From Escherichia coli (GTDB taxonomy: Bacteria; Pseudomonadota; Gammaproteobacteria; Enterobacterales; Enterobacteriaceae), in assembly GCF_003019035.1 (NCBI RefSeq), contig NZ_CP027447.1: 64,000 nucleotides of DNA; one strand, 5' to 3'. The position numbers were made by a program, and so were the translations under genes. This document shows, piece after piece, positions 32,244-64,000 of the stretch (within the stretch, counting starts at the first letter, position 1; every line of letters starts with the position of its first letter). The notes beneath the pieces are model-generated. The model was not told the DNA's origin. It made no database searches and saw only the letters and a list, made by a program, of their open reading frames with translations.

Positions 32244-32273
32244 CCGCAAGATTTTTAATTTTGCGGTTTTTTT
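32244..32273 (+). terminator. Terminator after aspV
   Basis: CCGCAAGATTTTTAATTTTGCGG hairpin followed by TTTTTTT. Confidence 0.5.
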
Positions 32274-33326: not shown

Positions 33327-33462
33327 TAAATTATATCTGCCGCCAGGAATTTCTGGCGGAAATAATACAAAATTCTTTGCATAAGAAATTTTTCTTGACA
33401 AAGACAGTGCAAGAAAGGACATGGAATCCGGAGTTAAAAACTGTTTGTTTTAGAATATTTAA

Positions 33463-33942
33463 TTATTTAACTGCTGAATCTTCCTTGCGAGAAATATATC
33501 CATTATTACATTTCATGCCATTTTTAATATAGATTGCTCCTGGGAAAATTCCCGTATTATTACCGCAGGGGTGATAATTAGTATTGACATATCCTGTGAC
33601 AAAAGGAGCTATTAAAGGTGCTATTACGATAGCTATTAGTAAAAATATAAGAGTTAGCTGTATTGTTATGTCTGTGGCGAAATTGACTACCTTCGTTTTT
33701 TTGATTAAGAATGATTTTATTATCGTAAGTAAAATTACATGAATATTTAAAAAGGAAAACGACATGAAACCGAAGCACAGAATCAACATTCTCCAATCAT
33801 AAAATATTTCCGTGGAGCATTTTATTATTGAATATAGAGGTTTAACTCCGGTAAAAAACAAAGAAGCATTGAATGCAGGGAAAAATAATATGGCCATAAA
33901 AAACATCGAAAGAAACTCTTTTAATTTAACATGTAAACGCAT
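33463..33942 (-). CDS. ykfM: Small polytopic inner-membrane protein (YkfM-like); candidate immunity protein
   Basis: 159-aa ORF, very hydrophobic with several predicted TM segments, AT-rich; 9 nt downstream of the 309-aa ORF. Confidence 0.55.
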   Translation of the reverse strand: MRLHVKLKEFLSMFFMAILFFPAFNASLFFTGVKPLYSIIKCSTEIFYDWRMLILCFGFMSFSFLNIHVILLTIIKSFLIKKTKVVNFATDITIQLTLIFLLIAIVIAPLIAPFVTGYVNTNYHPCGNNTGIFPGAIYIKNGMKCNNGYISRKEDSAVK

Positions 33943-33951
33943 GGTTAATCC

Positions 33952-46015: not shown

Positions 46016-47347
46016 TTACCCTCTTATAGCCCACAGTTGCATATTCAGGTCCGGAAAACTGCCGGAGACATGCAGTGCAACGGCCCCGGCGGCAGCTATT
46101 TCAGCCCAGGCCTGGCCGCTTTTGTCGAGTTCGAAATAGCTGAACCCGGAATGGTAGGGAAGCTGGCGGGGAGCCACCATCAGTGCACGCAGAGGAATAC
46201 CGGGGATCTGCACACTGACCATATTGCGGATTTTTTCCGGCGAGGAAATTTTCGACTGCTGGATAAACTGGCGCTGGATCTGATCGACCGGCATGTTTGC
46301 CGCCACGGCCAGCACAAAGGTGGCAGATTGCAGCAGTTCTGTGTCATGGATATCGGCCTGCCAGATACCGTCACGCAGATGCAGCGGCAGATTGACGGCT
46401 CTTGGCGACAGTACGGTATGCAGCGCCCGTTTGACTTCCGGTAACAGCGTTTTAAATGTTTTGGTCAGGTCATGATGATCATACACATCAAGCGGGCAGG
46501 GCAGGCGCGACGGCTCGGTAAAGGTCATCAGTTCACCCAGCAACCCCGCAAGATCAAGGTAGAAATCTTCCGGGTGGAGCTGGGATCGACGAGCGCGATG
46601 GGTAAACCGGGTCTGGTTACGGTTAAGTAACTGCAACATCATAAATTCCGCCACATCCGCGATGCCGCTCTGCGCCGGAGAGCCAATGCGGTTTGCCAGA
46701 TCGCTTGCCCGTCCGCCAATGGCCCCCTGTACCTCTTTGAGATAAACACGCAGTTTCTTACTGACCTGAATATTCTGGCAGGAGGGGATAAAATCGTCAT
46801 CCAGCGTCAGGGAGCCGTCGGCATGGCGATCGCTGATACGGCAAAGCGGGAGCGTAATATAGGCGCTCATATCTTCTGCACCGCTCATAATGCGCGGCGT
46901 AAGTTGACCCAGCGTCAGTGTTCGCGCGTCACCTTCTTCTGAATGCAAATCCCGGACATCGGCATAATTCAGCCGGTAACGCCCGATTCGCCGCCCGTCG
47001 CTGATTTCATTTCTCACATCACTGGCGACCGGCAGAGCGAGGTAAATATTGCGGCTTCTTTCGTCCGGAAAATTTTGCGGGTGCAGCGGATCGGGCAGTG
47101 CGTCCTGGTCGGGGATAGAAAAGACGGTGCCGTCGGGCAGTGTGCCTGACGCGCTGTCAATCATGATCTTACCCTGCGCCAGCAGTTCATTGTTGAGGGT
47201 GAGTTCGGTAAATCCCCAGGATAAATCATTCATGGCCCGGAAACGCTGGTTATCCAGGTAGTCGTTGTAACGCTGCTGTTGCTGGAAATGGTGTGGGCGC
47301 ATCAGCATCCCTTCCTGCCACATCACCTTGTTGCGGGTGGTTGCCAT
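46016..47347 (-). CDS. tssK: T6SS baseplate protein TssK
   Basis: 443-aa ORF; N-terminus ...VMWQEGMLMRPHHFQQQQRY typical of TssK. Confidence 0.88.
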   Translation of the reverse strand: MATTRNKVMWQEGMLMRPHHFQQQQRYNDYLDNQRFRAMNDLSWGFTELTLNNELLAQGKIMIDSASGTLPDGTVFSIPDQDALPDPLHPQNFPDERSRNIYLALPVASDVRNEISDGRRIGRYRLNYADVRDLHSEEGDARTLTLGQLTPRIMSGAEDMSAYITLPLCRISDRHADGSLTLDDDFIPSCQNIQVSKKLRVYLKEVQGAIGGRASDLANRIGSPAQSGIADVAEFMMLQLLNRNQTRFTHRARRSQLHPEDFYLDLAGLLGELMTFTEPSRLPCPLDVYDHHDLTKTFKTLLPEVKRALHTVLSPRAVNLPLHLRDGIWQADIHDTELLQSATFVLAVAANMPVDQIQRQFIQQSKISSPEKIRNMVSVQIPGIPLRALMVAPRQLPYHSGFSYFELDKSGQAWAEIAAAGAVALHVSGSFPDLNMQLWAIRG

Positions 47348-47349
47348 AA

Positions 47350-47874
47350 TTATTCATCCTCTTTTTTCATTTCGATGCTGCTTTGACGTACATGCACCAG
47401 CAGGCGGTAATGGTGGCCGGTTCCTTCCACCGTCTCGATTTGTTTCCATTCAGTGGCCTGGTCATCGGAGAAATAGGCCACGACACCAATAAACTGCGTT
47501 TTCTCATCCAGCTTTACCGGCGGCAGGGTTTTGATGGTGTCCGGCAACAGGTTGAAATCCTGGTGGTCGATATAGTTTTTACCCAGCACATCCGGTAGCG
47601 GCGTACTGGCTATCTGGTCATAGTCGGCTGCCAGCAATTTTGAGTCGTCAGTCAGGTACACCAGTTGCACATCCACGGCGGCTGATTCACCCTCCGCATT
47701 GGTATTGGTGTCCGGTTCGGTCAGCAGGGTGACGGTTATTTCCGAAGGTTGCTCCTTCAGGCTCCCGACCTGGATATCCGGGTTTTTGATCACCTCACTG
47801 ATTTTTTTCGCCGTTTCGCAGCCGGTTAATATGACGCACATCAGCACGCAGGCCAGAAACGCCTTCCTGTTCAT
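47350..47874 (-). CDS. tssJ: T6SS outer-membrane lipoprotein TssJ
   Basis: 174-aa ORF with lipobox ILTGCE; position between tagH and tssK. Confidence 0.85.
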   Translation of the reverse strand: MNRKAFLACVLMCVILTGCETAKKISEVIKNPDIQVGSLKEQPSEITVTLLTEPDTNTNAEGESAAVDVQLVYLTDDSKLLAADYDQIASTPLPDVLGKNYIDHQDFNLLPDTIKTLPPVKLDEKTQFIGVVAYFSDDQATEWKQIETVEGTGHHYRLLVHVRQSSIEMKKEDE

Positions 47875-49172
47875 GCTTCCGGCTCCCGCTGTTTTTCACG
47901 AAGCACCCGGTCATAGACCTGGGCGTAGACCTCGTTAAACAGCATCTCAAACCCCTGCTGGCGATCGGAGGCCAGCTCTTCGTAATAATGGCTGTACATT
48001 TGCCATGCTCCGGCATCATCCAGCGGCTGGCGCAGTTCATGGCTGCGGCGGTACTGCACAAAGCGGCGCAGCAGATTTTGTGGTGAGAAGGCGTCCAGCA
48101 GGACACGAAGCGACTCCACAATCGCCGCCCGGTTAGCTTCTTCGTGGTGGCGGACATTGCGCAGGCTTTCACTGACAGCGGCGGGAGCCGCCAGATGTAC
48201 CGGACTTTTACCTTCGGCAAACATCACGTCGAGCGCGGTGGCGTAATCCATGTTCAGGCGCAGCGGGTTATCTTCCAGCGGGCGCAAATGTTTGTCTGAG
48301 AGGCTGTTACGCTGCTGCTGCAAATCAAGCAGACCTTTTATTGCGGCCTGTAACGTGCGTCCGGCCTCCTCCAGAAAATCATCCGCATCGTCGGAATTGC
48401 TCACGGTAAGCGAGCCGCCAAGACCGCGCAGTAAGGGGGTGACCGCAAGGTGGCGTTGCGCCATTTCTGCCACAGAGACGTCATCATTACGCTCGCCGGG
48501 GCTGGCATAAATGGGCGGCAGATCCATAAACGGCGTATTGATCCCCCCATTACTTGCCGGATCGGACAGCGGTGCCGATGGCCGGACAGCCGCAATGCCT
48601 GAAAGCGGATCGCCCGCGGTAATCAGGCTTTCGGACTGAAGTGCCTGGAGTGGATCGGCAGAAAAACCGTTTACCACGGTGTCTGCAAGCTGATGCCGGT
48701 GAGTCATTCCCGGATAGTGTGGCGCACCCTCCGTTGACAGCAGGGTATCCGTGAGCATATCGCGATTGGTGACGATGGTTTCGGGAGTGGCCATTTCCTC
48801 ATCGTAATGGGGGATATCTCCCCGGTTCAGATGAACCCTCACCATCAGACGCCCTATCTGGATCTCATCGCCCTGGCGCAGCTGTATCAGGTCTGATGTT
48901 GCTGTGACTTTTGCCTGGTTCAGCCACAGTTGTGCCGTCTGCGGGCGCAGACAAAATGTGCCATCGTGCAGGATAACGGTAAAGGCCTGAGCCGGAATGC
49001 TCTGCTGACGATCCTGTACCGACCAGTGGCATTCGGGGCCATGGCCGACATTTCCCTGCTGCGTGAACAGACAGCGCGCCGCCCGCCCGCTTTCCAGCTC
49101 ACTGCCGTTAATGACCTGCAATGAAAGCGTCTGTAGTTTCTCTTCCGGCATATTCTGCTCCGTGATTATCAT
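47871..49172 (-). CDS. tagH: T6SS FHA-domain protein TagH (Fha)
   Basis: 433-aa ORF with N-terminal FHA domain; ATGA overlap with tssJ. Confidence 0.85.
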   Translation of the reverse strand: MIITEQNMPEEKLQTLSLQVINGSELESGRAARCLFTQQGNVGHGPECHWSVQDRQQSIPAQAFTVILHDGTFCLRPQTAQLWLNQAKVTATSDLIQLRQGDEIQIGRLMVRVHLNRGDIPHYDEEMATPETIVTNRDMLTDTLLSTEGAPHYPGMTHRHQLADTVVNGFSADPLQALQSESLITAGDPLSGIAAVRPSAPLSDPASNGGINTPFMDLPPIYASPGERNDDVSVAEMAQRHLAVTPLLRGLGGSLTVSNSDDADDFLEEAGRTLQAAIKGLLDLQQQRNSLSDKHLRPLEDNPLRLNMDYATALDVMFAEGKSPVHLAAPAAVSESLRNVRHHEEANRAAIVESLRVLLDAFSPQNLLRRFVQYRRSHELRQPLDDAGAWQMYSHYYEELASDRQQGFEMLFNEVYAQVYDRVLREKQREPEA

Positions 49173-49175
49173 AAT

Positions 49176-50264
49176 TTACGACCGTACCCTGATGGTGACT
49201 GAGGGTCGTTCTTCCGGTGTGCCGAGGAAGCTGGTCCAGCCCAGCAGCGCACTTTTGTTATCGCCCAGGCGCATTGCGCCCACCTGCTCCGGTGCCAGCC
49301 CCAGATGTAAGTCCCAGGCAAGCTGATCGCGCAGGATGAAGGACACAAACATCGTCAGTGGCAGGAAGTTTTCGCCGGACGGCAGAAAAGAGAGGAGCTG
49401 TTTTCGGGTCAGGCTGGTAATACTGAGCTGGAATTTTCCGCTGAGATCGGGCACCCGTGTACCCAGAACAAAGTTGCCCAGTACCGATCTTCCGGCCAGT
49501 TTTTCGCCATTTTTAAGGGAATAGCTCCCCAGGCTGTTTTGCTGATCCGGTTCAATATCCACCTTGCGACGTTGCCAGTTTTGCAGCGTCACGTCTGACA
49601 AGTCAAAACAGTGTGACACCAGGCCGCAGATGATTTCCGGGGATCGTCCCGGATTTGCCAGGATCCCGGAATACGCCAGCATTTTGCTGTGATTAATCGC
49701 CAGCTTATCGCGAAGCTGGCGGTGGCCCAGCCCGACAAGGGAGTACATGCGCTGCGAGAACGCATCCACACCGCCGTTACGAAAACTGATGTGATAGCGG
49801 TACTTACGCCAGATATGCCAGACAAACTGGGTCAGGCGGTGGCTGAACATATCCAGAAAATCGCCTACCGGACTTTGTTCATGTACCGCTTTCCAGGCCA
49901 GGTGATCCAGGTAATAACCGGGGAGAGGCGACTGGCTCCCCTGTAACCCCATAAAGGTGGTGGTCATCCTGAATGCCCCTGACGTATCCCGTTTCAGCCC
50001 ACTGATATCACTGCACGGGAAGGCAAGGCTGGCATCGGCGCTGAAACGCAGGGTTTCCTGTGCCGGATCATCGCGCAGGGATAATTCCGGTGTCCCCTTT
50101 TCACCCTGTGCCAGGCGGTGCAACAGCTCCGCCATCGCAAAAAAATTGTAAGAGCAGGCGTTATGGAAAACCTGTGCCAGCGGATCATTCTGCTCTTTAT
50201 CTGCCGGGGGATGTCCCGGACTCAGATAAGAGGATGCTGCCCGGTTCTTTCCGTCCATTTCCAT
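49176..50264 (-). CDS. tssG: T6SS baseplate protein TssG
   Basis: 362-aa ORF directly downstream of tssF; start may be internal (43-nt overlap with tssF as drawn). Confidence 0.85.
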   Translation of the reverse strand: MEMDGKNRAASSYLSPGHPPADKEQNDPLAQVFHNACSYNFFAMAELLHRLAQGEKGTPELSLRDDPAQETLRFSADASLAFPCSDISGLKRDTSGAFRMTTTFMGLQGSQSPLPGYYLDHLAWKAVHEQSPVGDFLDMFSHRLTQFVWHIWRKYRYHISFRNGGVDAFSQRMYSLVGLGHRQLRDKLAINHSKMLAYSGILANPGRSPEIICGLVSHCFDLSDVTLQNWQRRKVDIEPDQQNSLGSYSLKNGEKLAGRSVLGNFVLGTRVPDLSGKFQLSITSLTRKQLLSFLPSGENFLPLTMFVSFILRDQLAWDLHLGLAPEQVGAMRLGDNKSALLGWTSFLGTPEERPSVTIRVRS

Positions 50265-52072
50265 GTCTCCTGGCTTTCTGTGTTCACAACGGTCAGCATG
50301 TGGAATGAGTTAACGCTGGCGTACAGCGACAGAAAATGCGAAAGCACCGTACCGAGCAGATACATTTCCCCTTCACAGACAAACGGCTCCGGGTGCAGAT
50401 ACAGCGTGGAGGCCAGCCCCCGGACGGGAATGCCCGTAAACAGGCGATCGACAGGGCGGGTCTCCAGACGCTCAATGGCATCCAGCTTTTGTTGTGACAG
50501 CCGCGCCGTCTGCGGATGATGGATTGCGTGGCGATCAAAGTTGGCGATGACCTGCTTCAGCGCGTCCGTATCTAGTAATGACAGATAATTCAGGTTCATG
50601 GCGGAGAGCAGGGACCAGTGCAGGCTGCCATCAATGACCGGCCAGAGCGGTTGCGTCGGGCGGGTAATGTTGCGAAATGAAGCAACAGCCGCATTTTTAC
50701 CGGTTGTGCCGGTGATATCGCCGGAACGAATTTGTGACGGAAGCTCACGGTTGGTACAGGTCAGCGATACCGAAACCACTTCATTACTGAGCAGCGATTC
50801 GTCTGACGGATAACTGCCATCAGCATGTATAAAAGCAAGGGTATGATCAAAGCCGCGATGGAACAGGGATGTTTTGGTCCGGTGATGCCAGTACACCACT
50901 TCCCGCTTCCGGCTGTATTCCATCTGATGGCTGAAACTTTCAAAGGCAGGCCACTGGCGCGCGGCCTGCGTCGAAACAGGACGCCCCAGATCTTTTTTCC
51001 TGAACATATCCTGCACCTGGCTCACCACGCCGTTAACGGAAAAGACATCGTAATGTTCCGGATAGTGGCGGCTGGGAACCAGCGGATAGTCTGCCCGCCG
51101 GTTGTCCAGCGTGATGGCTTCTGCATGGTGGATAAATAAATTAATGGCAGGTGCGCAATACAGGCGCAGAGAATCGCGGCGCAGCCGGATGTCCACGGGC
51201 AATGGGCGCGAAAAACGCAGTTGCAGGGTAAAGGATTCAGCCTGCAATCCGTCAGGCAACGCCGGGCAACCACAAAGATCAAAAAAGAGAAACGCATCCG
51301 GGTAACAGAAATACTCCTGAAGGATCCGGTAGCCGCTGTGGACGTTTTTCGGCCAGGGCAGCATGGCATCCTGCGGCTCAAAACCGACAGCTTTCAGCAT
51401 AAACTCAGGCAGGCGAATATGCTGTTCACCCACAGTCAGGTCGGCACCCTGCAAGTATTCACAGAACCATAAATAAAGCTGGTCACGGGTATAGTTGTCG
51501 TCATTGCCGAGCCAGAAGCGAAGTTTGTTCAGATCCAGCGTGCGGAAGTCCGTTCCCGGTGCGACCGAAAAGGTGATGTTGATAACACCATTACGGGTCG
51601 TACTGCGGTTTTCAATCTGCTCCAGGCGAACGGGCAGCAGCCAGATATCCCGGCAGAGGGTGAAGGTACAGGGAGGCGGCTCCTCCTTTTTAGCATCGGA
51701 GGGCAGCACTTCATCGACTCTAATTTCCCCGGCGTTGGTTGTAAACTGCTCATTACGGGGGATTAACACCGGCACAGAAGACTTATCCATATCCGGCGTA
51801 TATTCAATAAGGGTCATTGCCGGAACCGGACGCAGGTAATTAGGCCACAGCATCTTAATAAGCCCGTGCGTCAGTTCTGGGAATTCATCCTCAATTTTCT
51901 GGCGGAGATTGCCGGTAAGAAAAGCCACGCCTTCCAGCAGGCGTTCAATATCCGGATCCGCATCTTTTTCGGCCAGGAAGCGGGCCAGATGGGGTTTTTC
52001 CGTTGCCAGCAGCTTGCTGAGCTGGCGCAGGTAATCGAGTTCTTCCCGGAAATAGCGTTCTTCAAATTCCAT
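50222..52072 (-). CDS. tssF: T6SS baseplate protein TssF
   Basis: 616-aa ORF MEFEERYFREELDYLRQLSKLLATEKPHLARFL... Confidence 0.88.
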   Translation of the reverse strand: MEFEERYFREELDYLRQLSKLLATEKPHLARFLAEKDADPDIERLLEGVAFLTGNLRQKIEDEFPELTHGLIKMLWPNYLRPVPAMTLIEYTPDMDKSSVPVLIPRNEQFTTNAGEIRVDEVLPSDAKKEEPPPCTFTLCRDIWLLPVRLEQIENRSTTRNGVINITFSVAPGTDFRTLDLNKLRFWLGNDDNYTRDQLYLWFCEYLQGADLTVGEQHIRLPEFMLKAVGFEPQDAMLPWPKNVHSGYRILQEYFCYPDAFLFFDLCGCPALPDGLQAESFTLQLRFSRPLPVDIRLRRDSLRLYCAPAINLFIHHAEAITLDNRRADYPLVPSRHYPEHYDVFSVNGVVSQVQDMFRKKDLGRPVSTQAARQWPAFESFSHQMEYSRKREVVYWHHRTKTSLFHRGFDHTLAFIHADGSYPSDESLLSNEVVSVSLTCTNRELPSQIRSGDITGTTGKNAAVASFRNITRPTQPLWPVIDGSLHWSLLSAMNLNYLSLLDTDALKQVIANFDRHAIHHPQTARLSQQKLDAIERLETRPVDRLFTGIPVRGLASTLYLHPEPFVCEGEMYLLGTVLSHFLSLYASVNSFHMLTVVNTESQETWKWTERTGQHPLI

Positions 52073-52075
52073 CTG

Positions 52076-52489
52076 TCAGTCCACCCGGTAATGCTGGCTG
52101 CCATTCGGTGCCATATCAAATTCAAGCACTTCATGCGTTTCGTTAAATGTCACCCAGGCTGTAATATGAAACGTCATATCCAGCGGGCTGGCGGCGGATG
52201 AAACCACAGCCTGCACTTCAGCGTGTGAGATCCGGGGTTCATAGCGTTCTATACATTGCGCGATGGCCCGACTCATTGATTGGCGGAAGTTTTCAGCCCC
52301 TTCCGGTTCATCAATGCCCAGTTCAGGCGCACCCCGGCAACTACCGGACCGGGTATTAAGAATGTTTCGCAGGTTCTGGCGAATGGACTGCCTGAGCGCA
52401 TGAATACTGCTTCCCTGCCGGTTTCTGGCCGGTGAGGCTTCCATACGCTCAAAAAGAGAACCTGTGGTTCTTTCCCGATCCGGTATCAT
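52076..52489 (-). CDS. tssE: T6SS baseplate protein TssE (gp25-like)
   Basis: 137-aa ORF between tssC and tssF. Confidence 0.85.
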   Translation of the reverse strand: MIPDRERTTGSLFERMEASPARNRQGSSIHALRQSIRQNLRNILNTRSGSCRGAPELGIDEPEGAENFRQSMSRAIAQCIERYEPRISHAEVQAVVSSAASPLDMTFHITAWVTFNETHEVLEFDMAPNGSQHYRVD

Positions 52490-52495
52490 GGCGTG

Positions 52496-53971
52496 TTACT
52501 CCCTGTCTAACCGGCCAACCAGGGAAAGCTCAAAGTTTGCCCCCATAAATTTAAAATGGGGCCGCACGCTCAGCGCGACCTGGTACCAGCCGGGTTCGCC
52601 TTCCACATCCATAACCTCAACTTTGGCAGCGCGCAGAGGTTTACGGCTGCGCACGTCCGCAGGCGGGTTTTCCTGGTCGGCAACATACTGACGGATCCAG
52701 GTATTAAGCTCTCTTTCTAAGTCGCTCCTTTCTTTCCATGACCCCAGTTGTTCACGCTGCAACACCTTGATGTAGTGCGCTAACCGGTTGATGATGAAGA
52801 GATAAGGAAGCTGCGTACCCAGCTTATAGTTGGTTTCTGCGTCTTTGCCCGGAAAGTGCTTCGGTTTTTGTACCGAGTTTGCAGAGAAAAAGGCTGCATT
52901 ATCAGAGTCTTTACGCATGGTAAGGGTGATAAAACCCTCTTCAGCCAGTTCAAATTCGCGGCGATCGGTGACCAGCACCTCGGTTGGGATTTTGGCCTGA
53001 ATCTGACCCATCGTTTCGAACAGATGCACCGGCAGATCTTTCACTGCGCCGCCGCTTTGCGGACCGATGATATTTGGACACCAGCGGTATTTGGCAAAAC
53101 TGTCTGCGACATTGCACGCCAGCATCCAGGCCGTATTACCCCACAGATAATCTTCGTGGTTCCGGCTGACATCTTCGTGATAGTTAAAGTTCTTAACAGG
53201 GTTATCTGTTGGTGAATAAGGCTGGCGAAGCAGGAAGCGGGGTGCCGTAAGCCCTAAATAGCGCGAATCTTCCGAGTCACGCAGGGCGCGCCATTTGGTG
53301 TAGGCCGGACCTTCAAAGATGGCATAAAGATCTTTGATATTAGGCAGTTCGGTCCACGAGTTCAGCCCCATAAATTCCGGGGAAACGGAGGACAGGAACG
53401 GTGCGTGCGCCATTGCGCCCACGGCACTGACGTATTGCAGCAGTTTCATGTCAGGCGCGGTATTTTTGAACTCATAAGCGCCCAGCACGGCAGCGATGGG
53501 TTCACCGCCAAACTGTCCGAAACCGGACGAATAAACGTGCTTATAAAATCCGGACTGAATAATTTCTGGCGCAAACTCAAAGTCTTCCAGAAGTTCCTGC
53601 TTGGTGACATGAAGCACGTTGACCTTGATGTTTTCACGGAAATCAACGCGATCCACCATTGTTTTCAGTGAGCGCCAGAACGACTCGACCTGCTGAAAGG
53701 CAGGCGCATGGATGATGACATCCATCTGGCGGCTGATGCGTTCATCAATATCTGCAATCATGCTGTCCACGGCCAGTTTATTGACCGGTTCGGCAGATGC
53801 AGTGGATTGCAGGATGCTGGCAATAAAGGCTGTCACACCCTGGCGGGCAACGTCATAACCTTCCGAACCGGGCTGAATACGGGTCTGTGCCATGATTTGA
53901 TCAAGCAGCGACGATGCCTGCTCAGGCTGCCCGGCATGACTGGAAACGAGTTCCTCTTCCTGTAAAGACAT
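52496..53971 (-). CDS. tssC: T6SS contractile sheath large subunit TssC (VipB)
   Basis: 491-aa ORF with conserved TssC core. Confidence 0.93.
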   Translation of the reverse strand: MSLQEEELVSSHAGQPEQASSLLDQIMAQTRIQPGSEGYDVARQGVTAFIASILQSTASAEPVNKLAVDSMIADIDERISRQMDVIIHAPAFQQVESFWRSLKTMVDRVDFRENIKVNVLHVTKQELLEDFEFAPEIIQSGFYKHVYSSGFGQFGGEPIAAVLGAYEFKNTAPDMKLLQYVSAVGAMAHAPFLSSVSPEFMGLNSWTELPNIKDLYAIFEGPAYTKWRALRDSEDSRYLGLTAPRFLLRQPYSPTDNPVKNFNYHEDVSRNHEDYLWGNTAWMLACNVADSFAKYRWCPNIIGPQSGGAVKDLPVHLFETMGQIQAKIPTEVLVTDRREFELAEEGFITLTMRKDSDNAAFFSANSVQKPKHFPGKDAETNYKLGTQLPYLFIINRLAHYIKVLQREQLGSWKERSDLERELNTWIRQYVADQENPPADVRSRKPLRAAKVEVMDVEGEPGWYQVALSVRPHFKFMGANFELSLVGRLDRE

Positions 53972-54021
53972 ACTGAAAATCCTTCTGTTTTAGCTGTGTT
54001 TCTGAAACCGGCTTTTCGCCA

Positions 54022-54246
54022 TCAGTGAAGTACGCGCTGCCAGTGCGACGCGCTCTGCTGAAACTCACAAAAATGGATAATCTCATCCAATAGATCACTG
54101 ATACGGCGATCCAGTGTTGTAATCAGCGCAGCCACACCATCCTGGTTGATTTCAACGGACGGGCTGAAACATACCTGGTAAACCACCTGCAGAATGTCTG
54201 CAACAGAGAGGTGGTATGTCCCGGAGATATTTTTGTGTGCCGTCAT
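54022..54246 (-). other. Short ORF (74 aa) resembling the N-terminal segment of TssC; possible gene fragment
   Basis: ...VAALITTLDRRISDLLDEIIHFCEFQQSASHWQRVL aligns by eye (about 40% identity) with TssC residues ...VDSMIADIDERISRQMDVIIHAPAFQQVESFWRSL. Confidence 0.3.
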
Positions 54247-54280
54247 GCCTGGATAACCCTGTTTAATGAAATAGTGGTGG

Positions 54281-54781
54281 TTATTTATTGCTCACCCGGC
54301 CGATTTCTTTGAGCAACTGCTCGCGGGACTCCTCATTTTCCAACAATGCCTGGAGCTGGGTACGGAATGCCGGAAGGTTACCCATCGGCCCCTTCAGTGC
54401 AGTCAGTGCTTCACGCAGTTCCAGCAATTTATTCACTTCCGGAACCTGCCGGGCCACGCTATCTGGTGAAAAATCATCCAGTGATTTGATATTCAGCGCC
54501 ACATTCAGTTCATCGTCTGTTGTGCTTCCCTTCAGCGTGGCGGGGACAGTAAAATTGAGGCCAATGGCTGCTTCAGCCATCACTGCACCGAAATTGTGCT
54601 TGTTAACGGAAACTGCCTGACGTTCATCCAGTGGGGATGTTTCCTGCGTATTTCCGGTATCGCCGACAACGAGCATGTTAAGCGGAAGTTCCACTTCAGC
54701 CGTCTGGCCATCTGTTTTTGGGACATACGATATATTAATACGCTCGCGAGGCGCGACGCTGCCTTCAAATTTTTTGCTCAT
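54281..54781 (-). CDS. tssB: T6SS contractile sheath small subunit TssB (VipA)
   Basis: 166-aa ORF MSKKFEGSVAPRERINISYVPKTDGQTAEVELPLNMLVVGD... Confidence 0.9.
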   Translation of the reverse strand: MSKKFEGSVAPRERINISYVPKTDGQTAEVELPLNMLVVGDTGNTQETSPLDERQAVSVNKHNFGAVMAEAAIGLNFTVPATLKGSTTDDELNVALNIKSLDDFSPDSVARQVPEVNKLLELREALTALKGPMGNLPAFRTQLQALLENEESREQLLKEIGRVSNK

Positions 54782-55165
54782 AAAAGTGATCCGTCATGTT
54801 ATCTCGTACAGGCCATGAACACGGCATATTTGTACCGAAAAAAAATATCGGCAATGCCGCCCTAATGGCGGTGAAAATAAAATCACCACTCCTTCATCAC
54901 CCCGCATTCTACGCTTCAAAATAAATAAGAAAAGGACTTTTTATCGATCGTAAAGAGGGGTATTCTGCAAGCGTTAAATAGATTGTGTGAACCTGTGCAA
55001 TTCGCGCCAGGTGTATTATGGCAATAATTTAAATATAGAGCTTTTATGTAACTTATTGAATTATATAATAATTTCATTAAACATAAGCTAATCTGATGAT
55101 TGCTTGTTTATATATTTGTTTTGTGATTGATTAAGTGGGTATTTTTAAGGAATATCTCAAAAATT

Positions 55166-55186
55166 ATCAAAATGATAATTCAGAAA
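55166..55186. promoter_or_regulatory. Weak Fur-box-like sequence in the tssB/hcp divergent control region
   Basis: AATGATAAT core matches the central 9 nt of the Fur consensus GATAATGATAATCATTATC; about 11/19 overall. Confidence 0.25.
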
Positions 55187-55477
55187 GGATAAATACAATA
55201 TTTATTCATGATTCAGCTTTGGCCATTTTATGGAGGCAATACGGACTTTGAACAGTTGGGTATGGTTATCCAGATATATATTATTAACTTATTGCTGAAT
55301 AAGAGATTTAATGATTTTAAAAATAGTTTTTACGACAACCGTAAATTCTAGCTCGGTTTGTATGTAAAAAATACTGAAAAATGATGCGGTTCCGTGAAGT
55401 GAGCTGCATCTGCCTGTCTGGGATTAACGGCAGGTCATTGTAAGTAGTAATTAACCACGTTAACAAGGAGTTTACAA

Positions 55478-55996
55478 ATGCCAACACCGTGTTATATCTC
55501 CATCACTGGTCAGACCCAGGGAAATATTACTGCAGGTGCATTTACCGCTGATTCTGTCGGCAACATCTATGTGCAGGGGCACGAAGACGAGATGCTGGTG
55601 CAGGAATTCCTGCATAACGTTACTGTCCCGACCGATCCTCAGTCCGGCCAGCCTGCGGGTCAGCGTGCTCACAAGCCGTTCATTTTTACCGTGGCGCTGA
55701 ACAAAGCTGTTCCGCTGATGTACAACGCACTGGCCTCCGGCGAAATGCTGCCAACCACTGAACTTCACTGGTGGCGTACCTCTGTGGAAGGCAAACAGGA
55801 GCATTATTTCACCACCCGCCTGACCGATTCGACGATTGTCGATATGAAACTGCATATGCCGCATTGCCAGGATCCGGCGAAACGCGAGTTCACCCAGTTG
55901 CTCGAAGTTTCACTGGCCTACCGCAAAATAGAGTGGGAACACGTCAAATCTGGCACCTCCGGTGCCGACGACTGGCGCGCACCGCTGGAAGCATAA
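55478..55996 (+). CDS. hcp: T6SS inner tube protein Hcp (TssD)
   Basis: 172-aa ORF MPTPCYISITGQTQGNITAGAFTADSVGNIYVQGHEDE... Confidence 0.93.
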   Translation: MPTPCYISITGQTQGNITAGAFTADSVGNIYVQGHEDEMLVQEFLHNVTVPTDPQSGQPAGQRAHKPFIFTVALNKAVPLMYNALASGEMLPTTELHWWRTSVEGKQEHYFTTRLTDSTIVDMKLHMPHCQDPAKREFTQLLEVSLAYRKIEWEHVKSGTSGADDWRAPLEA

Positions 55997-56007
55997 GTTA
56001 AGCCAAC

Positions 56008-56040
56008 AGCATCCGGCTATCAGGCCGGATGCTGTTTTTG
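56008..56040 (+). terminator. Candidate intrinsic terminator/attenuator between hcp and vgrG
   Basis: GCATCCGGC-TATCAG-GCCGGATGC hairpin followed by TGTTTTTG. Confidence 0.5.
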
Positions 56041-56205
56041 TATTACGCCGTAAAAAGAAAGGTTGTCAGTAAGGGGTTACGTTCACGGGAGATGGCGGAT
56101 GCCGGAAACTTCGGCGGTAGCGTGCCTGAACGCAAGCGTAACACTGTACTGTTACAGCCGCTTTAACAGCGAACTGTCTGTTTTTCCTTAAACCCGGAGG
56201 TTGCT

Positions 56206-58314
56206 ATGTCAACCGGATTACGTTTCACGCTGGAAGTGGACGGCCTGCCACCGGACGCGTTTGCGGTGGTCTCCTTTCATCTGAACCAGTCACTCTCTTC
56301 GCTCTTTTCCCTCGATCTCTCTCTGGTCAGCCAGCAGTTTCTCTCCCTTGAATTTGCGCAGGTGCTGGACAAAATGGCCTACCTGACGGTATGGCAGGGC
56401 GATGACGTACAGCGCCGGGTGAAAGGTGTGGTGACCTGGTTTGAACTGGGGGAGAACGACAAAAACCAGATGCTGTACAGCATGAAGGTGTGCCCACCGC
56501 TGTGGCGCACAGGGCTGCGCCAGAACTTCCGTATCTTCCAGAATGAGGACATCGAAAGCATACTCGCGACGATCCTGAAAGAAAACGGGGTGACCGAGTG
56601 GAGTCCGCTGTTCAGCGAGCCGCATCCTTCCCGTGAGTTTTGTGTCCAGTACGGCGAAACCGATTACGATTTCCTGTGCCGGATGGCGGCGGAGGAAGGC
56701 ATCTTCTTTTATGAGGAGCACGCGCAAAAAAGTACCGACCAGAGCCTGGTCCTGTGCGACACCGTGCGTTATCTGCCGGAGTCCTTTGAGATCCCCTGGA
56801 ATCCGAACACCCGTACCGAGGTGAGCACCCTATGCATCAGCCAGTTCCTCTACAGCGCACAAATCCGCCCATCTTCCGTGGTGACCAAAGACTACACCTT
56901 TAAACGACCCGGCTGGGCAGGGCGTTTTGATCAGGAAGGCCAGCACCAGGATTACCAGCGCACACAGTATGAAGTGTATGACTACCCCGGACGTTTCAAG
57001 GGTGCCCACGGGCAGAACTTTGCCTGCTGGCAGATGGATGGCTGGCGAAACAACGCAGAAGTGGCGCGCGGAACAAGCCGTTCGCCGGAGATATGGCCGG
57101 GACGGCGAATTGCGCTGACGGGGCATCCGCAGGCGAACCTGAACCGGGAATGGCAGGTGGTGGCAAGTGAACTGCACGGCGAGCAGCCGCAGGCGGTGCC
57201 GGGACGCAGTGGTTCAGGTACCACGCTGAATAACCACTTTGCGGTAATACCGGCAGACAGAACATGGCGGCCACAGCCGTTGCTGAAACCGCTGGTGGAC
57301 GGCCCGCAGAGCGCCGTCGTGACGGGACCGGCAGGAGAAGAAATCTTCTGTGATGAACATGGCCGCGTGCGGGTGAAATTTAACTGGGACCGTTATAACC
57401 CGTCAAACCAGGACAGTTCATGCTGGATCCGTGTGGCACAGGCGTGGGCAGGCACCGGGTTTGGTAACCTGGCGATACCGCGTGTGGGTCAGGAGGTCAT
57501 TGTGGACTTCCTCAACGGCGATCCGGACCAGCCGATTATTATGGGGCGCACCTACCACCAGGAAAACCGCACCCCCGGCAGCCTGCCGGGAACAAAGACG
57601 CAAATGACCATTCGTTCAAAAACCTATAAGGGCAGCGGGTTTAATGAACTGAAGTTTGACGATGCGACAGGGAAAGAACAGGTCTACATCCACGCGCAGA
57701 AGAACATGAACACCGAGGTGCTGAATAACCGCACCACAGATGTGATAAACAACCATGCTGAGACCATCGGCAACAATCAGGTGATTGCGGTTACCAACAA
57801 TCAGATACAGACGGTGGGCGTTAACCAGATAGAGACGGTGGGCAGTAACCAGATCATTAAAGTGGGCTCTGTTCAGGTGGAAACGATTGGACTTGTTCGT
57901 GCGCTGACTGTGGGCGTGGCGTATCAGACGACGGTAGGTGGCATTATGAACACCTCGGTGGCCCTGATGCAGTCCTCGCAGATCGGTTTGCATAAATCGT
58001 TGATGGTCGGGCTGGGTTATGACGTCAAAGTCGGAAATAACGTTACCTTCACCGTTGGTAAAACGAAAAAGGATGATACCGGGCAGACCGCGATTTACTC
58101 CGCCGGTGAGCATCTGGAACTCTGCTGTGGTAAGGCAAGGCTGGTGCTGACTAAGGACGGACAAATTTTTCTCAACGGCACAAAAATTCATTTGCAGGGT
58201 AAGGAGCAGGTTAATGGTGACTCACTGTTGATTAACTGGAACTGTGCAGCCTCGAAATCCCCACCGAAGACCCCTGATGAAAAGCAGGATACGCCGGATA
58301 TGAGAGAGTACTGA
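56206..58314 (+). CDS. vgrG: T6SS spike protein VgrG (TssI)
   Basis: 702-aa ORF, N-terminus MSTGLRFTLEVDGLPPDAFAVVSFHLNQSLSSLFSLDLSLVSQQ, beta-helix repeat region (TVGVNQIETVGSNQIIKVGSVQVETIG). Confidence 0.93.
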   Translation: MSTGLRFTLEVDGLPPDAFAVVSFHLNQSLSSLFSLDLSLVSQQFLSLEFAQVLDKMAYLTVWQGDDVQRRVKGVVTWFELGENDKNQMLYSMKVCPPLWRTGLRQNFRIFQNEDIESILATILKENGVTEWSPLFSEPHPSREFCVQYGETDYDFLCRMAAEEGIFFYEEHAQKSTDQSLVLCDTVRYLPESFEIPWNPNTRTEVSTLCISQFLYSAQIRPSSVVTKDYTFKRPGWAGRFDQEGQHQDYQRTQYEVYDYPGRFKGAHGQNFACWQMDGWRNNAEVARGTSRSPEIWPGRRIALTGHPQANLNREWQVVASELHGEQPQAVPGRSGSGTTLNNHFAVIPADRTWRPQPLLKPLVDGPQSAVVTGPAGEEIFCDEHGRVRVKFNWDRYNPSNQDSSCWIRVAQAWAGTGFGNLAIPRVGQEVIVDFLNGDPDQPIIMGRTYHQENRTPGSLPGTKTQMTIRSKTYKGSGFNELKFDDATGKEQVYIHAQKNMNTEVLNNRTTDVINNHAETIGNNQVIAVTNNQIQTVGVNQIETVGSNQIIKVGSVQVETIGLVRALTVGVAYQTTVGGIMNTSVALMQSSQIGLHKSLMVGLGYDVKVGNNVTFTVGKTKKDDTGQTAIYSAGEHLELCCGKARLVLTKDGQIFLNGTKIHLQGKEQVNGDSLLINWNCAASKSPPKTPDEKQDTPDMREY

Positions 58315-58380
58315 TCCCGTACCTGTTCAGTATTCAGTAACAAACAAGCATTAAAAATAAACAGAAGAAGGAATTGAATC

Positions 58381-61300
58381 ATGAGCGGAAAACCGGCGGC
58401 GCGTCAGGGAGATATGACCCAGTATGGCGGTCCCATTGTCCAGGGTTCGGCAGGTGTAAGAATTGGCGCGCCCACCGGCGTGGCCTGTTCAGTGTGCCCG
58501 GGCGGAGTCACTTCCGGCAACCCGGTAAACCCGCTGCTGGGAGCGAAGGTGCTGCCCGGTGAGACGGATGTTGCGCTGCCCGGTCCGCTGCCGTTCATTC
58601 TCTCCCGCACCTACAGCAGCTACCGGACCCGGACGCCTGCACCGGTGGGCGTTTTCGGCCCCGGCTGGAAAGCGCCTTCTGATATCCGCTTACAGCTACG
58701 TGATGACGGACTGATACTCAACGACAACGGCGGGCGGAGCATTCACTTTGAGCCGCTGCTGCCGGGGGAGGCGGTGTACAGCCGCAGCGAGTCAATGTGG
58801 CTGGTGCGTGGCGGTAAGGCAACGCAGCCGGACGGCCACACGCTGGCACGGCTGTGGGCGTCGCTGCCGCCGGATATCCGGTTAAGCCCGCATCTTTACC
58901 TGGCGACCAACAGCGCACAGGGGCCGTGGTGGATACTCGGCTGGTCAGAGCGGGTGCCGGGTACTGAGGACGTACTGCCAGCGCCGCTGCCGCCGTACCG
59001 GGTGCTTACCGGGCTGGCGGACCGCTTCGGGCAGACGCTGACGTACCGGCGTGAGGCCGCCGGTGACCTGGCCGGGGAAATCACCGGCGTGACGGACGGT
59101 GCCGGGCGGAAGTTCCGTCTGGTGCTGACCACACAGGCGCAGCGGGCGGAAGAGGCCCGTAAACAGCACACCGCTTCCTTATCTTCCCCTGACACCCCCC
59201 GCCCTCTTTCAGACTCAGCTTTCCCCGACACACTGCCCGGTACGGAATACGGCCCCGACAGGGGTATCCGCCTTTCGGCGGTGTGGCTGATGCACGACCC
59301 GGCATACCCGGAAAGCCTGCCCGGTGCGCCACTGGCGCGGTACACGTATACGGAAGCCGGTGAACTGCTGGCGGTATATGACCGCAGCAATACGCAGGTG
59401 CGCGCTTTCACGTATGACGTGCAGCACCCGGGCCGGATGGTGGGGCACCGTTATGCGGGAAGGCCGGAGATGCGCTACCGCTACGACAATACCGGGCGGG
59501 TGGTGGAGCAGCTGAACCCGGCAGGGTTAAGCTATCGCTATCTTTATGAGCAGGACCGCATCACCATCACGGACAGCCTGAACCGGCGAGAGGTGCTGCA
59601 TACAGAAGGCGGGGCCGGGCTGAAGCGGGTGGTGAAAAAAGAACTGGCGGACGGCAGCGTCACGCACAGCGGGTATGACGCGGCAGGAAGGCTCACGGCA
59701 CAGACGGACGCGGCGGGACGGCAGACAGAGTACGGTCTGAATGTGGTGTCAGGCGATATCACGGACATCACCACGCCGGACGGGCGGGAGACGAAATTTT
59801 ACTATAACGACGGGAACCAGGTGACGGCAGTGGTGTCCCCGGACGGGCTGGAGAGCCGCCGGGCGTATGATGAGCGGGACAGGCTGGTAACGGAGACATC
59901 GCGCAGTGGGGACGTCATCCGGTATGCTTATGATAATCCGCACAGTGAATTACCGGCCACGACAACAGATGCGACGGGCAGCACCCGGCAGATGACCTGG
60001 AGCCGCTACGGGCAGTTGCTGGCGTTCACCGACTGCTCGGGCTACCAGACCCGCTATGAGTACGACCGCTTCGGCCAGATGACGGCGGTCCACCGCGAGG
60101 AAGGCATCAGCCTTTACCGCCGCTATGACAACCGTGGCCGGTTAACCTCGGTGAAAGACGCACAGGCCCGTGAAACGCAGTATGAGTACAACGCCGCAGG
60201 CGACCTGACTGCCGTTATCACCCCGGATGGCAACCGGAGTGAGACACAGTACGATGGGTGGGGAAAGGCCATCAGCACCACGCAGGGCGGGCTGACGCGC
60301 AGTATGGAGTACGATGCTGCCGGACGTATCACCACGCTGACTAACGAGAACGGCAGCCACAGCGACTTTAGTTACGATGCGCTGGACCGCCTGATACAGC
60401 AGGGCGGCTTTGACGGGCGGACGCAACGTTATCATTATGACCTGACCGGAAAACTCACGCAGAGTGAAGATGAGGGGCTTGTCATCCTCTGGTACTACGA
60501 TGAATCGGACCGTATTACTCACCGCACGGTAAACGGTGAACCGGCAGAACAGTGGCGGTATGACGGCCACGGCTGGCTGAGAGAAATCAGCCACCTGAGC
60601 GAAGGCCACCGTGTTGCCGTCCACTATGGCTATGATAATAAAGGCCGCCTGACCAGTGAGCGCCAGACGGTGCATCACCCGGAGACGGGAGAGCTGCTCT
60701 GGCAGCATGAGACCGGACATGCGTACAACGAACAGGGGCTGGCAAACCGCGTCACGCCGGACAGTCTGCCGCCGGTGGAGTGGCTGACCTATGGTAGCGG
60801 TTATCTGGCAGGCATGAAGCTGGGCGGGACGCCGCTGCTGGAGTTCACGCGCGACCGCCTGCACCGTGAGACGGTGCGCAGCTTCGGCAGCATGGCAGGC
60901 AGTAATGCCGCATACGAACTGACCAGCACATACACCCCTGCAGGCCAGTTACAGAGTCAGCACCTGAACAGCCTGGTGTATGACCGTGACTACGGGTGGA
61001 ATGACAACGGAGACCTGGTGCGCATCAGCGGCCCGCGACAGACGCGGGAATACGGCTACAGCGCCACGGGCAGGCTGGAGAGTGTGCGCACCCTCGCACC
61101 GGACCTGGACATCCGCATCCCGTATGCCACGGACCCGGCGGGCAACCGGCTGCCGGACCCGGAGCTGCACCCGGACAGTACACTCACAGTGTGGCCGGAT
61201 AACCGCATCGCGGAGGATGCGCACTATGTCTACCGCCACGATGAATACGGCAGGCTGACGGAGAAGACGGACCGCATCCCGGCGGGTGTGATACGGACGG

Positions 61301-61989
61301 ACGACGAGCGGACCCACCACTACCACTACGACAGCCAGCACCGCCTGGTGTTCTACACGCGGATACAGCATGGCGAGCCACTGGTCGAGAGCCGCTACGT
61401 CTACGACCCGCAGGGACGGCGAATGGCGAAACGGGTATGGCGGCGGGAGCGTGACCTGACGGGGTGGATGTCGCTGTCGCGTAAACCGGAGGTGACGTGG
61501 TACGGCTGGGACGGCGACCACCTGACGACGGTGCAGACCGACAGCACACGTATCCAGACGGTATACGAGCCGGGAAGCTTCACACCGCTCATCCGCATCG
61601 AAACAGACAACGGCGAGCGGGAGAAAACGCAGCGGCGGAGCCTGGCGGAGAAGCTCCAGCAGGAAGGGAGCGAGGACGGACACGGTGTGGTGTTCCCGGC
61701 TGAACTGGTGAGGATGCTGGACAGGCTGGAGGAAGAAATCCGGGCAGACCGCGTGAGCGGTGAAAGCCGGACGTGGCTTGCACAGTGCGGGCTGGCGGTG
61801 GAGCAACTGGAAAAACAGGTGGAGCCGGAATACACGCCGGAACGCACACTGCATCTTTACCACTGCGACCATCGGGGACTGCCGCTGGCGCTTATCAGCG
61901 AAGACGGCAATACGGTGTGGAGCGCGGAGTATGATGAATGGGGAAACCTGCTTAATGAGGAGAACCCGCATCATGTGTATCAGTCATAG
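58381..61989 (+). CDS. rhs: PAAR-domain Rhs protein, core region, terminated by in-frame TAG
   Basis: 1202-aa ORF; N-terminal PAAR-like region ([42 protein letters not shown]) then YD/RHS repeats; ends ...[11 protein letters not shown] at TAG 61987-61989. Confidence 0.9.
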
Positions 61990-62598
61990 CGTCTGCCGGG
62001 GCAGCAGCATGATGAGGAGTCGGGGCTGTATTATAACCGGAACCGGTACTACAATCCGTTGCTGGGGAGGTATATTACCCAGGATCCAATTGGGCTGGAG
62101 GGGGGATGGAACCTGTATAATTACCCACTGAATCCGATAATAAGGATGGATCCTTTGGGTTTGTATAATTTATATCAATTATTATATGATGTTTGGCATG
62201 ATGATTCATATGGAACATCATCAATTGATATTACTGGCAGTGGAGATCTAATATCATTAGGTGGTCATGCAGGACTTGGCGTTGCGTTTGCTAAAAAGAA
62301 AGGTGAAATGTTATCTGATATTTGTATTTATGCTACAGCATGCGGACATGCAGGAATTGGTGGTGGGATAAATGCGGCTATCACATATTCTGAGACCAAG
62401 TCTTTACCTACATCGGGAGTCAGCAATTCAGTAGGTGTAACGGTTGGCGGCGGAGTTGGGGGGCATTTTGCGTATACTTATGTAGTGGATGTTGATAATC
62501 CAGAATCATCGACAGAATCTGTTGGTATCGGTGCAGGTGTTGACGCTTCAGTTATGACTCTGGCTTGTAGAACGTGGCAAGAATGCTGGGTCAATTAA
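61990..62598 (+). other. Rhs C-terminal region in frame with the core: conserved junction (DPxGL motif) plus glycine-rich candidate toxin domain
   Basis: Same frame as 58381 ORF; [58 protein letters not shown] then an AT-rich, Gly-rich tail; track ORF 62059 begins at TTG, no ATG. Confidence 0.6.
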
Positions 62599-62609
62599 CA
62601 GGAGGAAAT

Positions 62610-63005
62610 ATGAAAGAATATATATTTTTAGTTTTATTTTTATTGTGTGGTTGTTCTCCAGTGGACATAGAGCCAGCTAGACAAGAAGTTAATATCTTTC
62701 GTGGTTTATATCAGACAGGAAAATACAGTGATATATATAAAATCACTTCAAGTGATTTTCAGACTGCCACATCTGAAAAAAAATTTATCGACATAATGAG
62801 CGAAGCAAAAGGAAAAGATCTTGGGACTTATAAAAAATCAACCCTTAAAACTGAAAAAATCACTCGCGGATTATTTTCAAACGATGAAATTACATTGATA
62901 TATTTCTCAGAATATTCAAAAAGAATTGTCCAAGAGGTTTTTGTGTTTAATGTTGAAGACAAAAAAGTAAAATTAAAAGGTTATAGGTATGATTCGATTA
63001 ATTAA
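62610..63005 (+). CDS. Putative lipoprotein, candidate Rhs immunity protein
   Basis: ORF 62574-63005; ATG at 62610 behind AGGAGG; MKEYIFLVLFLLCGCSP lipoprotein signal; AT-rich; immediately after the Rhs C-terminal domain. Confidence 0.6.
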   Translation: MKEYIFLVLFLLCGCSPVDIEPARQEVNIFRGLYQTGKYSDIYKITSSDFQTATSEKKFIDIMSEAKGKDLGTYKKSTLKTEKITRGLFSNDEITLIYFSEYSKRIVQEVFVFNVEDKKVKLKGYRYDSIN

Positions 63006-63297
63006 ATTTTTTGATGATGACTTCAATTAGTAGAACATGTATTTTTCGATAAAAGCACCGATGACTTTTTCATGAAGTTCTACAGAGCGCGAGAAACAGA
63101 TGGTTCTGCGAGTCAGACGTTTGATTCAGGTTCTCAGGGGCAGATTCAGGGACAGGGAAAGATCATCAGAAGTTCACTTTTTGCACTAAATAATTCGCAT
63201 TTTATGTTTAAAAATTGAGATATTTCTCATTACCTGAAACTGTTTTTTTATTGCTTATACATGATCAAATACTCCTTACATAATTAAGGAGAACAAA

Positions 63298-64000
63298 ATG
63301 GAACTTAAAAAATTGATGGAACATATTTCTGTTATCCCCGATTACAGACAAGCCTGGAAAGTGGAACATAAATTATCGGATATTCTACTGTTGACTATTT
63401 GTGCCGTTATTTCGGGTGCAGAAGGCTGGGAAGATATAGAGGATTTTGGGGAAACACATCTCGATTTTTTGAAGCAATATGGTGATTTTGATAATGGTAT
63501 TCCTGTTCACGATACCATTGCCAGAGTTGTATCCTGTATCAGTCCTGCAAAATTTCACGAGTGCTTTATTAACTGGATGCGTGACTGCCATTCTTCAGAT
63601 GATAAAGACGTCATCGCAATTGATGGAAAAACACTCCGGCATTCTTATGACAAGAGTCGCCGCAGGGGAGCGATTCATGTCATTAGTGCGTTCTCAACAA
63701 TGCACAGTCTGGTCATCGGACAGATCAGGACGGATGAGAAATCCAATGAGATTACAGCTATCCCTGAACTTCTTAACATGGTGGATATTAAAGGAAAAAT
63801 CATCACAACTGATGCGATGGGTTGCCAGAAAGATATAGCAGAGAAGATACAAAAACAGGGCGGTGATTATTTATTCGCTGTAAAAGGAAATCAGGGTCGG
63901 CTAAATAAAGCCTTTGAGGAAAAATTCCCACTGAAAGAATTAAATAATCCAGAACATGACAGTTACGCAATTAGTGAAAAGAGTCACGGCAGAGAAGAAA
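63298..64000 (+). mobile_element. ISAs1-family transposase (H-repeat-associated protein), 5' part; continues beyond window
   Basis: ATG at 63298 behind AAGGAG; [58 protein letters not shown]... matches E. coli H-rpt proteins; typical position downstream of Rhs elements. Confidence 0.85.

Follow-up and report, generated by a model that had tools for sequence, protein, structure and literature searches.

What is the transposase gene that begins just past the Rhs toxin cassette at the end of this DNA, and has the element that carries it shaped the exchange of that cassette or the loss of the T6SS island in which it lies? The window (the whole 64,000-nucleotide stretch of Escherichia coli DNA that was analysed) ends inside the gene. 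Here, we propose, at a probability of about 0.82, that the element, a copy of ISEc1 (also called the H-repeat, or H-rpt), is the right end of an imported RhsE-type module, that ISEc1 is a selfish IS which still functions or did so recently, and that its part in the loss of the island from K-12 was a passive one. The features on which this is based are collected in Table 1.

Table 1. Features of the Rhs module and its terminal H-rpt copy (positions are those of the window)
Feature	Position	Strand	Basis
vgrG	56206-58314		ORF of Rhs module in window
rhs	58381-62598		ORF region of Rhs module in window
Immunity gene dsORF-e4, 131 aa	62610..63005	+	ORF; annotation of relatives
IS1-family relic	63013..63146	-	PF03400 DDE_Tnp_IS1, 47.8 bits, profile positions 100-131/131
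CAGGGA, H-rpt left-end match	63147..63152	+	Alignment of window, SCU-301, S56, CFSAN061769, O157 and SE11
ISEc1/H-rpt, first 848 bp of 1,292 bp	63153..64000	+	Flank comparison; end by proxy 64444
Left terminal inverted repeat CAGGGAAAGATCA	63153..63165	+	Comparison of copies
7-bp hairpin CUCCUUA-CAUAAU-UAAGGAG over ORF-H Shine-Dalgarno sequence	63272..63291	+	MFE -8 kcal/mol, z = -2.67
ORF-H, codons 1-234 of 378-codon DDE transposase gene	63298..64000	+	Frame and profiles; stop by proxy 64432-64434
Gene-conversion tract in H-rpt	63753..63954	+	11 substitutions vs SCU-301 in 202 bp, 10 of them synonymous

The gene, ORF-H, starts with an ATG at 63298-63300, with a Shine-Dalgarno sequence (AAGGAG, 63286-63291) six nt upstream of it, and its plus-strand frame is free of stops for 234 codons, up to position 64000. 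An earlier note on this DNA had placed an ISAs1-type transposase gene 290 bp past the immunity gene and running off the window, which agrees with what we find: the gap from the immunity stop to the start of ORF-H is 293 nt. The partial product matches the NCBIfam model NF033564 (ISAs1 family transposase) with 282.1 bits (E 5e-84; profile positions 1-209 of 314), against a cut-off of 70 bits, and the full-length protein of SCU-301, the nearest complete genome, reaches 416.4 bits. The Pfam domain DDE_Tnp_1_assoc (PF13808; 116.6 bits, residues 8-94) is followed by DDE_Tnp_1 (PF01609; 65.9 bits, residues 102-208), which is cut by the end of the window and is complete in the full-length proxy protein (profile 3-200 of 200); the third acidic residue of the DDE triad of ORF-H lies beyond 64000. 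Both the curated model and the domain architecture thus place ORF-H in the ISAs1 family, and, because of the scores against these three profiles, its being a real gene is far beyond chance. A sequence search of the PDB with the full transposase detected no relative. At codon 225 (window 63972) the gene has ATT (Ile), where every other H-rpt copy examined has ATG (Met).

The element itself is of an already catalogued type and not of a new kind: it is ISEc1, the H-rpt, of the ISAs1 family. NCBI PGAP labels the SCU-301 copy an "ISAs1-like element ISEc1 family transposase". Compared with K-12 H-rptB (yhhI), the ISEc1 type copy, the window copy has 96.7% nucleotide identity over 848 bp and shares 228 of 234 amino acids, and the proxy, taken over its entire 1,292 bp, has 97.0%; against K-12 H-rptE (ydcC) the window copy stands at 96.1%. 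These values lie above the 95% nucleotide identity to K-12 H-rpt copies by which we count a copy as an isoform of ISEc1. The K-12 H-rptB copy, part of the RhsB element, has the same terminal repeats and the same single 378-codon ORF as the window lineage and, like the window copy, lies 3' of an Rhs tip and a small downstream ORF. The two differ in site (yafV for the window copy, yhhJ for H-rptB) and in flanks, and the window copy has a mosaic tract of 200 bp and the unique M225I change.

The ends of the element were fixed by comparing copies in different surroundings. Across the compared copies, H-rpt homology always begins CAGGG... and always stops ...TAATCTTGCCCTG, and the boundaries are set by at least 10 distinct left flanks and at least 9 distinct right flanks, in copies of 1,291-1,292 bp (K-12 RhsB, K-12 RhsE, SE11, S56, CFSAN061769, O157 and O6:H16, and further 2013C-3033, NCTC9967, ST648, NCTC86 and L016). 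The left repeat CAGGGAAAGATCA pairs at 11 of 13 positions with the right end CAGGGCAAGATTA, the reverse complement of ...TAATCTTGCCCTG; the right end lies outside the window, and the right repeat and the 1,292-bp length were seen in L015 and SCU-301 only. Short terminal repeats, a single ORF and a length within about 1.2-1.5 kb are those of an ISAs1 element, with the right side judged by proxy.

The ISAs1 family takes its name from a prototype of Aeromonas salmonicida, includes IS1358 of the O-antigen regions of Vibrio cholerae, and has been tied to the junctions of exchanged surface-polysaccharide gene clusters. ISEc1 resembles the family in its NF033564 transposase, its size class, its short repeats, the 10-bp duplication at a sister copy and the presence of one copy in an O15 cluster. 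It differs from the wider family in being its E. coli lineage and in having most of its ties to Rhs loci.

Past position 64000 we relied on L015 (contig UWLZ01000001.1), found by exact look-up of the window's VgrG and differing from window 46206-64000 by 3 mismatches in 17,795 bases. There the homologue of ORF-H is intact at 378 aa; the element has a length of 1,292 bp and ends at the equivalent of window 64444, and yafV follows 38 bp past this end, then ivy and fadE. The earlier note had called the transposase intact-looking and proposed extending the sequence to the end of the gene and the inverted repeats, naming a frame truncated or shifted just past the window, with no element ends, as evidence to the contrary. 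In the near-identical L015 the 378-aa frame is uninterrupted, the extension (by L015 and SCU-301) yields the right end as well, and the window copy, judged through these relatives, is apparently intact too. In SCU-301, which is 99.45% identical to window 56001-64000, the 378-aa ISEc1 transposase is followed by a convergent yafV, ivy and fadE. SCU-301 was demoted as the proxy for the 3' part in favour of L015, its H-rpt being 11-12 clustered substitutions away from that of the window. Its other differences from L015 and the window (1719-8099 of the fetched locus) are mostly single-base indels that put vgrG and rhs out of frame and that probably stem from faulty assembly, not from biology. A search of complete genomes for the exact sequence of the final 351 bp gave 99.1% as the best match, at unrelated loci (the RhsB locus and an O15 cluster).

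The DNA between the immunity gene and ORF-H records an older IS. Seven nt past the immunity stop stands a terminal repeat, which we take to be that of IS1, and after it come the final ~40 transposase codons, with a stop in frame; the PF03400 match covers the last 32 of these codons, and the minus-strand translation ends ...IKRLTRRTICFSRSVELHEKVIGAFIEKYMFY followed by a stop. The relic breaks off at about 63146-63151, where H-rpt sequence starts, and PGAP annotates an "IS1 family transposase, incomplete" at the equivalent place in SCU-301, SE11, S56 and O157. The CAGGGA that comes next is the first 6 bp of the 13-bp left-end relic CAGGGAAAGATCA found at the equivalent place in RhsE loci at min 32, and its first 4-5 bases could instead be read as IS1 sequence.

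From 63153 to 63297 run the left inverted repeat of the H-rpt and its 5' leader. The hairpin over the Shine-Dalgarno sequence is identical in sequence in 6 H-rpt copies, and was looked for and found absent in a 67%-identical element of the yncI type; we suggest, with low confidence, that it may limit translation of ORF-H from read-through transcripts. Scanned for promoters, 62550-63400 yielded 2 sites where 3.7 would be expected, none above chance. One predicted promoter 5' of ORF-H was dropped, as transcription from it would begin at or after the Shine-Dalgarno sequence. An Rfam search of 62500-64000 returned nothing meaningful.

In light of this identity, how did ISEc1 come to lie at this place? 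The window holds, in order, vgrG, rhs, dsORF-e4, the IS1 relic and the H-rpt from 63153, which is the arrangement of an Rhs composite, with the H-rpt 3' of the core extension and a small downstream ORF. Across window 56195-63152, identity to the min-32 RhsE locus of SE11 is 94.8%, and it rises to about 100% over the tip, the immunity gene and the IS1 relic; an identical dsORF-e4, the IS1 relic and an H-rpt stand in the same order at min-32 RhsE in about 1,283 genomes, including SE11, S56 and O157. The rhs core is 92% identical to that of K-12 rhsE, as against 79-82% for the cores of ordinary aspV islands. In a sliding comparison with the ordinary aspV island of NCTC9967, identity is 96-100% until ~57750 and 58-85% from there on; identity to the SE11 min-32 locus climbs to 97-98% from about 57700. 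Because the identity switches inside vgrG, we conclude that a ~6.7-kb RhsE-type segment was transplanted into the aspV island, and the left crossover of this import is, as the sequence reads, homologous and within vgrG (~57750). The window vgrG is accordingly a chimera at ~57700-57750, its 5' three-quarters being of the ordinary aspV-island type and its 3' end of the min-32 RhsE type.

The min-32 RhsE loci of K-12, SE11 and O157, which carry H-rptE (ydcC), thus have an rhs core type in common with the window module and differ from it in two respects. The window module lies in the aspV T6SS island, whereas min-32 RhsE lies between yncH and pptA. The min-32 loci also have a 13-bp end relic, a group II intron fragment and an outer H-rpt, and the window is without all three and retains just CAGGGA.

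The right join can be read in L015. The canonical end TAATCTTGCCCTG is followed by ACCCG and then by a 13-bp relic TAGTCTTACCCCG, the characteristic end of the resident H-rpt copy beside yafV. This junction type occurs in 1-2 of 5,426 complete genomes, and a source for the ACCCG pentamer was sought in every flank seen without a match. As a complete H-rpt is here followed by the relic of a resident end, the right join is not a crossover between two H-rpt copies. K-12 yafF ("H-rpt min 5") and, in T6SS-positive strains, the ordinary yafV-side H-rpt of the RhsG locus occupy the same site as the window copy. The ordinary copy, however, ends ...CGTAGTCTTACCCCG / ...CGTAGTAATACCCCG with a TAG stop, whereas in the window lineage the copy closes with TAA...CTTGCCCTG, the canonical end, and the ordinary end survives as a relic 5 bp further on. 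The right-end types at the yafV flank therefore differ, and the ordinary junction aligns at 87.5%; from the canonical end, the ACCCG and the relic, the window copy is a replacement and not a positional orthologue of yafF. We propose that a vgrG'-rhs-immunity-(IS1 relic)-H-rpt module took the place of the customary RhsG-type module at the island's right edge, beside yafV, and that ISEc1 would generally travel with toxin/immunity cassettes as their downstream boundary.

One other option is that H-rpt copies are themselves the homologous crossover points, both for swaps of cassettes between Rhs loci and for deletion of the whole T6SS island. The block of tip, immunity gene, IS1 relic and H-rpt that min-32 RhsE and aspV have in common would fit this, as would the H-rpt copies that punctuate the cassette arrays at both loci and the conversion tract, by which the window copy is seen to recombine with its paralogues. 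The alleles of that tract match H-rpt copies at RhsB and O-antigen loci, and in the 4.3 kb 3' of it the window/L015 sequence has zero differences from SCU-301. From this 200-bp tract it follows that homologous exchange between H-rpt copies occurs, and in our proposal ISEc1 would serve as dispersed homology for gene conversion. The earlier note had taken the H-repeat for a likely point of cassette exchange; this stands in so far as the H-rpt is the right end of the module and its copies recombine, but not for the joins of the import, since the homologous crossover that can be located is in vgrG and the right join is a complete copy with the resident relic beside it, not a single chimeric copy. 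Together with the island deletions described below, two of which end inside the H-rpt at the yafV site but at microhomologies with other DNA, this makes crossover between H-rpt copies an unlikely account of the locus; the deletions and the import that we examined arose through microhomology joins, the crossover in vgrG and probably terminus-anchored events.

Is ISEc1 still a working element, or is the H-rpt a dead and immobile fossil that hitch-hikes with Rhs DNA, its frame open by chance or through recent origin? Transposition of the H-rpt has never been observed experimentally (PMC3032704), some of the copies next to yafV have internal stops, and the site is filled in half of all genomes, as would be expected of an old, fixed insertion. 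There is, moreover, no target-site duplication, of the about 8-10 bp looked for in an ISAs1 element, at the window copy (left flank GATTCAGGGA, right flank ACCCGTAGTC). This is as would be expected if both flanks had been rearranged later; for want of a duplication, the arrival of this copy by transposition cannot be shown from the copy itself. Of the full-length copies retrieved, all of which were inspected for duplications, just one has one: in SE11, a full H-rpt is nested in another H-rpt and is flanked by a 10-bp duplication, ATTCCTCATT.

This duplication argues against a fossil, and so do the coding sequences. For 13 copies, nearly all pairwise comparisons give a dN/dS of 0.03-0.18, and dS reaches 0.17; the ORF is under purifying selection (dN/dS about 0.1), to a degree incompatible with neutral decay. 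Copies also turn up in unrelated surroundings: in NCTC86 (9301-11724 of the fetched locus), one ISEc1 copy lies inside a second H-rpt in an O15 O-antigen cluster, between galF and wzx, so that the element is found outside Rhs contexts too.

The surroundings of the element bear on the same point. In the min-32 loci, the stretch from the IS1 relic to the H-rpt contains the 13-bp left-end relic, 15 bp of another left end and ~200 bp of an intron. The intron piece, which comes from the 5' end of a group II intron (Rfam RF01999, 93 bits; 9654-9870 of the fetched SE11 locus), sits after nt 15 of the older left end and is absent from the window. One and the same H-rpt left terminus adjoins this stretch at five depths, in O157/SE11, CFSAN061769, O6:H16, S56 and the window, where CAGGGA is the sole remainder between the IS1 relic and the H-rpt, and the right flanks likewise vary among copies. 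A terminus that stays exact as neighbouring DNA is lost to a variable extent is the classical trace of adjacent deletion mediated by a transposase. That both termini are exact, with flanks that vary at many depths, is hard to reconcile with an inert relic, and we consider it distinctly improbable that the H-rpt is one. We propose instead that ISEc1 is a selfish IS, still or recently functional, which makes deletions of the transposase type with one end exactly at its own termini, and that in the window lineage such deletion would have trimmed away the remains of intron and IS that lay between immunity gene and H-rpt. The series of junctions could instead have arisen by repeated insertion and recombination between tandem copies, a course that also requires activity of the element.

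If the transposase has been kept intact, for whom has it been kept? It might be a domesticated recombinase, retained by the host to install, prune or shuffle Rhs toxin/immunity cassettes. The strong purifying selection on copies that have long resided at conserved sites of the chromosome, systematic placement directly 3' of tip/immunity cassettes at three Rhs loci, and terminus-anchored trimming beside cassettes would all suit such a role. Against it, copies lie in O-antigen clusters and inside other H-rpt, as is usual for a selfish IS, and no cassette junction that we examined requires the H-rpt transposase. Many Rhs loci do without an H-rpt altogether, and so does the main evolutionary study of rhs, a whole-family analysis that makes no mention of it (Jackson et al. 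2009; PMC2935791). Selection among element copies, together with gene conversion, explains the purifying selection equally well, and we regard domestication by the host as highly improbable. A related version, in which the ISEc1 transposase is kept as a cassette-handling recombinase through terminus-anchored joins and deletions at T6SS-linked Rhs loci, strikes us as very doubtful; its weaker form holds simply that the transposase is still active.

What, then, of the island and its loss? That the aspV T6SS forms an island was known before (PMC5363993; PMC2808357). In 2,759 of 5,426 complete E. coli genomes, yafV is adjoined by an H-rpt of which the last 646 bp or more are present, and shorter yafV-side relics are found in K-12, E2 and ATCC 25922, the last of which has a different island at the site. 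Being so widespread at yafV, shorter relics included, the H-rpt has long marked the island's right edge. H-rpt copies are found 3' of Rhs tip/immunity cassettes at the RhsB, RhsE and aspV/yafV loci, so that their description as companions of Rhs elements is well founded.

In K-12, the rnhA-yafU segment corresponds to window 30706-34308 at 98.6% identity and is followed by the last 291 bp of the H-rpt, which is the yafF pseudogene, and then by yafV. Since K-12 retains just these 291 bp, its deletion has its right breakpoint within the H-rpt at the yafV site. The deletion covers 29.8 kb, from yafU to H-rpt position 1002-1006, and the 5-bp microhomology GTTCT at the join is all that the two sides share; the junction is present in 371 genomes, essentially of the K-12 lineage. 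In E2, a deletion runs from tssM (window 38638) to H-rpt 988-990, and the shared bases are CAG, a 3-bp microhomology. In O6:H16 M9682-C1, a deletion runs from tssM into the rhs core and leaves the H-rpt whole.

The earlier note had also proposed the H-repeat as a recombination point for deletion of the whole island, to be examined by comparing breakpoints with T6SS-negative strains at aspV. The K-12 right breakpoint does fall inside the H-rpt, but it is not at an end of the element and not a product of H-rpt recombining with H-rpt, the partner at GTTCT being yafU. Nor does the comparison give a common breakpoint, as those of E2 and O6:H16 differ from that of K-12. On the sequence of their joins, the K-12 and E2 losses are best read as illegitimate microhomology deletions for which the H-rpt was a passive target, and in K-12 the deletion would simply have happened to end inside the element. 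The right ends of the K-12 and E2 deletions are 13-16 bp apart inside the H-rpt and their left ends differ (window 34308 and 38638), with the junctions at 3599 (K-12) and 5001 (E2) of the fetched loci; the nearness of the two right ends could reflect a hotspot or nested deletions.

Our findings confirm the textbook association, in that the H-repeat, ISEc1, flanks Rhs toxin cassettes, and they place it at the yafV edge of the island in half of sequenced E. coli. The K-12 breakpoints, the import by crossover in vgrG, the trimming and the conversion tract are of use for reconstructing the Rhs repertoire and the gain and loss of the T6SS. The comparative traces suggest that the H-rpt merits a direct test of transposition; should ISEc1 still be active, this would contradict the published view that no H-rpt has been seen to transpose.

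The Rhs cassette next to the element has features of its own. In the window, rhs has an in-frame TAG at 61987-61989, where L015 has TAC (Tyr); lying just before the end of the conserved core, it leaves a core ORF of 1,202 codons and a separate tip ORF, and is due either to a nonsense mutation in this strain or to an error in the sequence. The toxin tip (62002-62598) is glycine-rich and has no Pfam match above the cut-off, and the immunity protein begins with a lipoprotein-like signal, MKEYIFLVLFLLCGCSP; the sequence suggests an envelope-acting toxin. A further H-rpt copy is found within this gene in L016 (GCA_025991315.1), which is 100% identical to window 46206-58394: there an H-rpt (12190-13483 of the fetched locus) replaces rhs from nt 18 to the equivalent of window 60833, so that the toxin gene is destroyed, and 9 contigs have an arrangement similar to this one.
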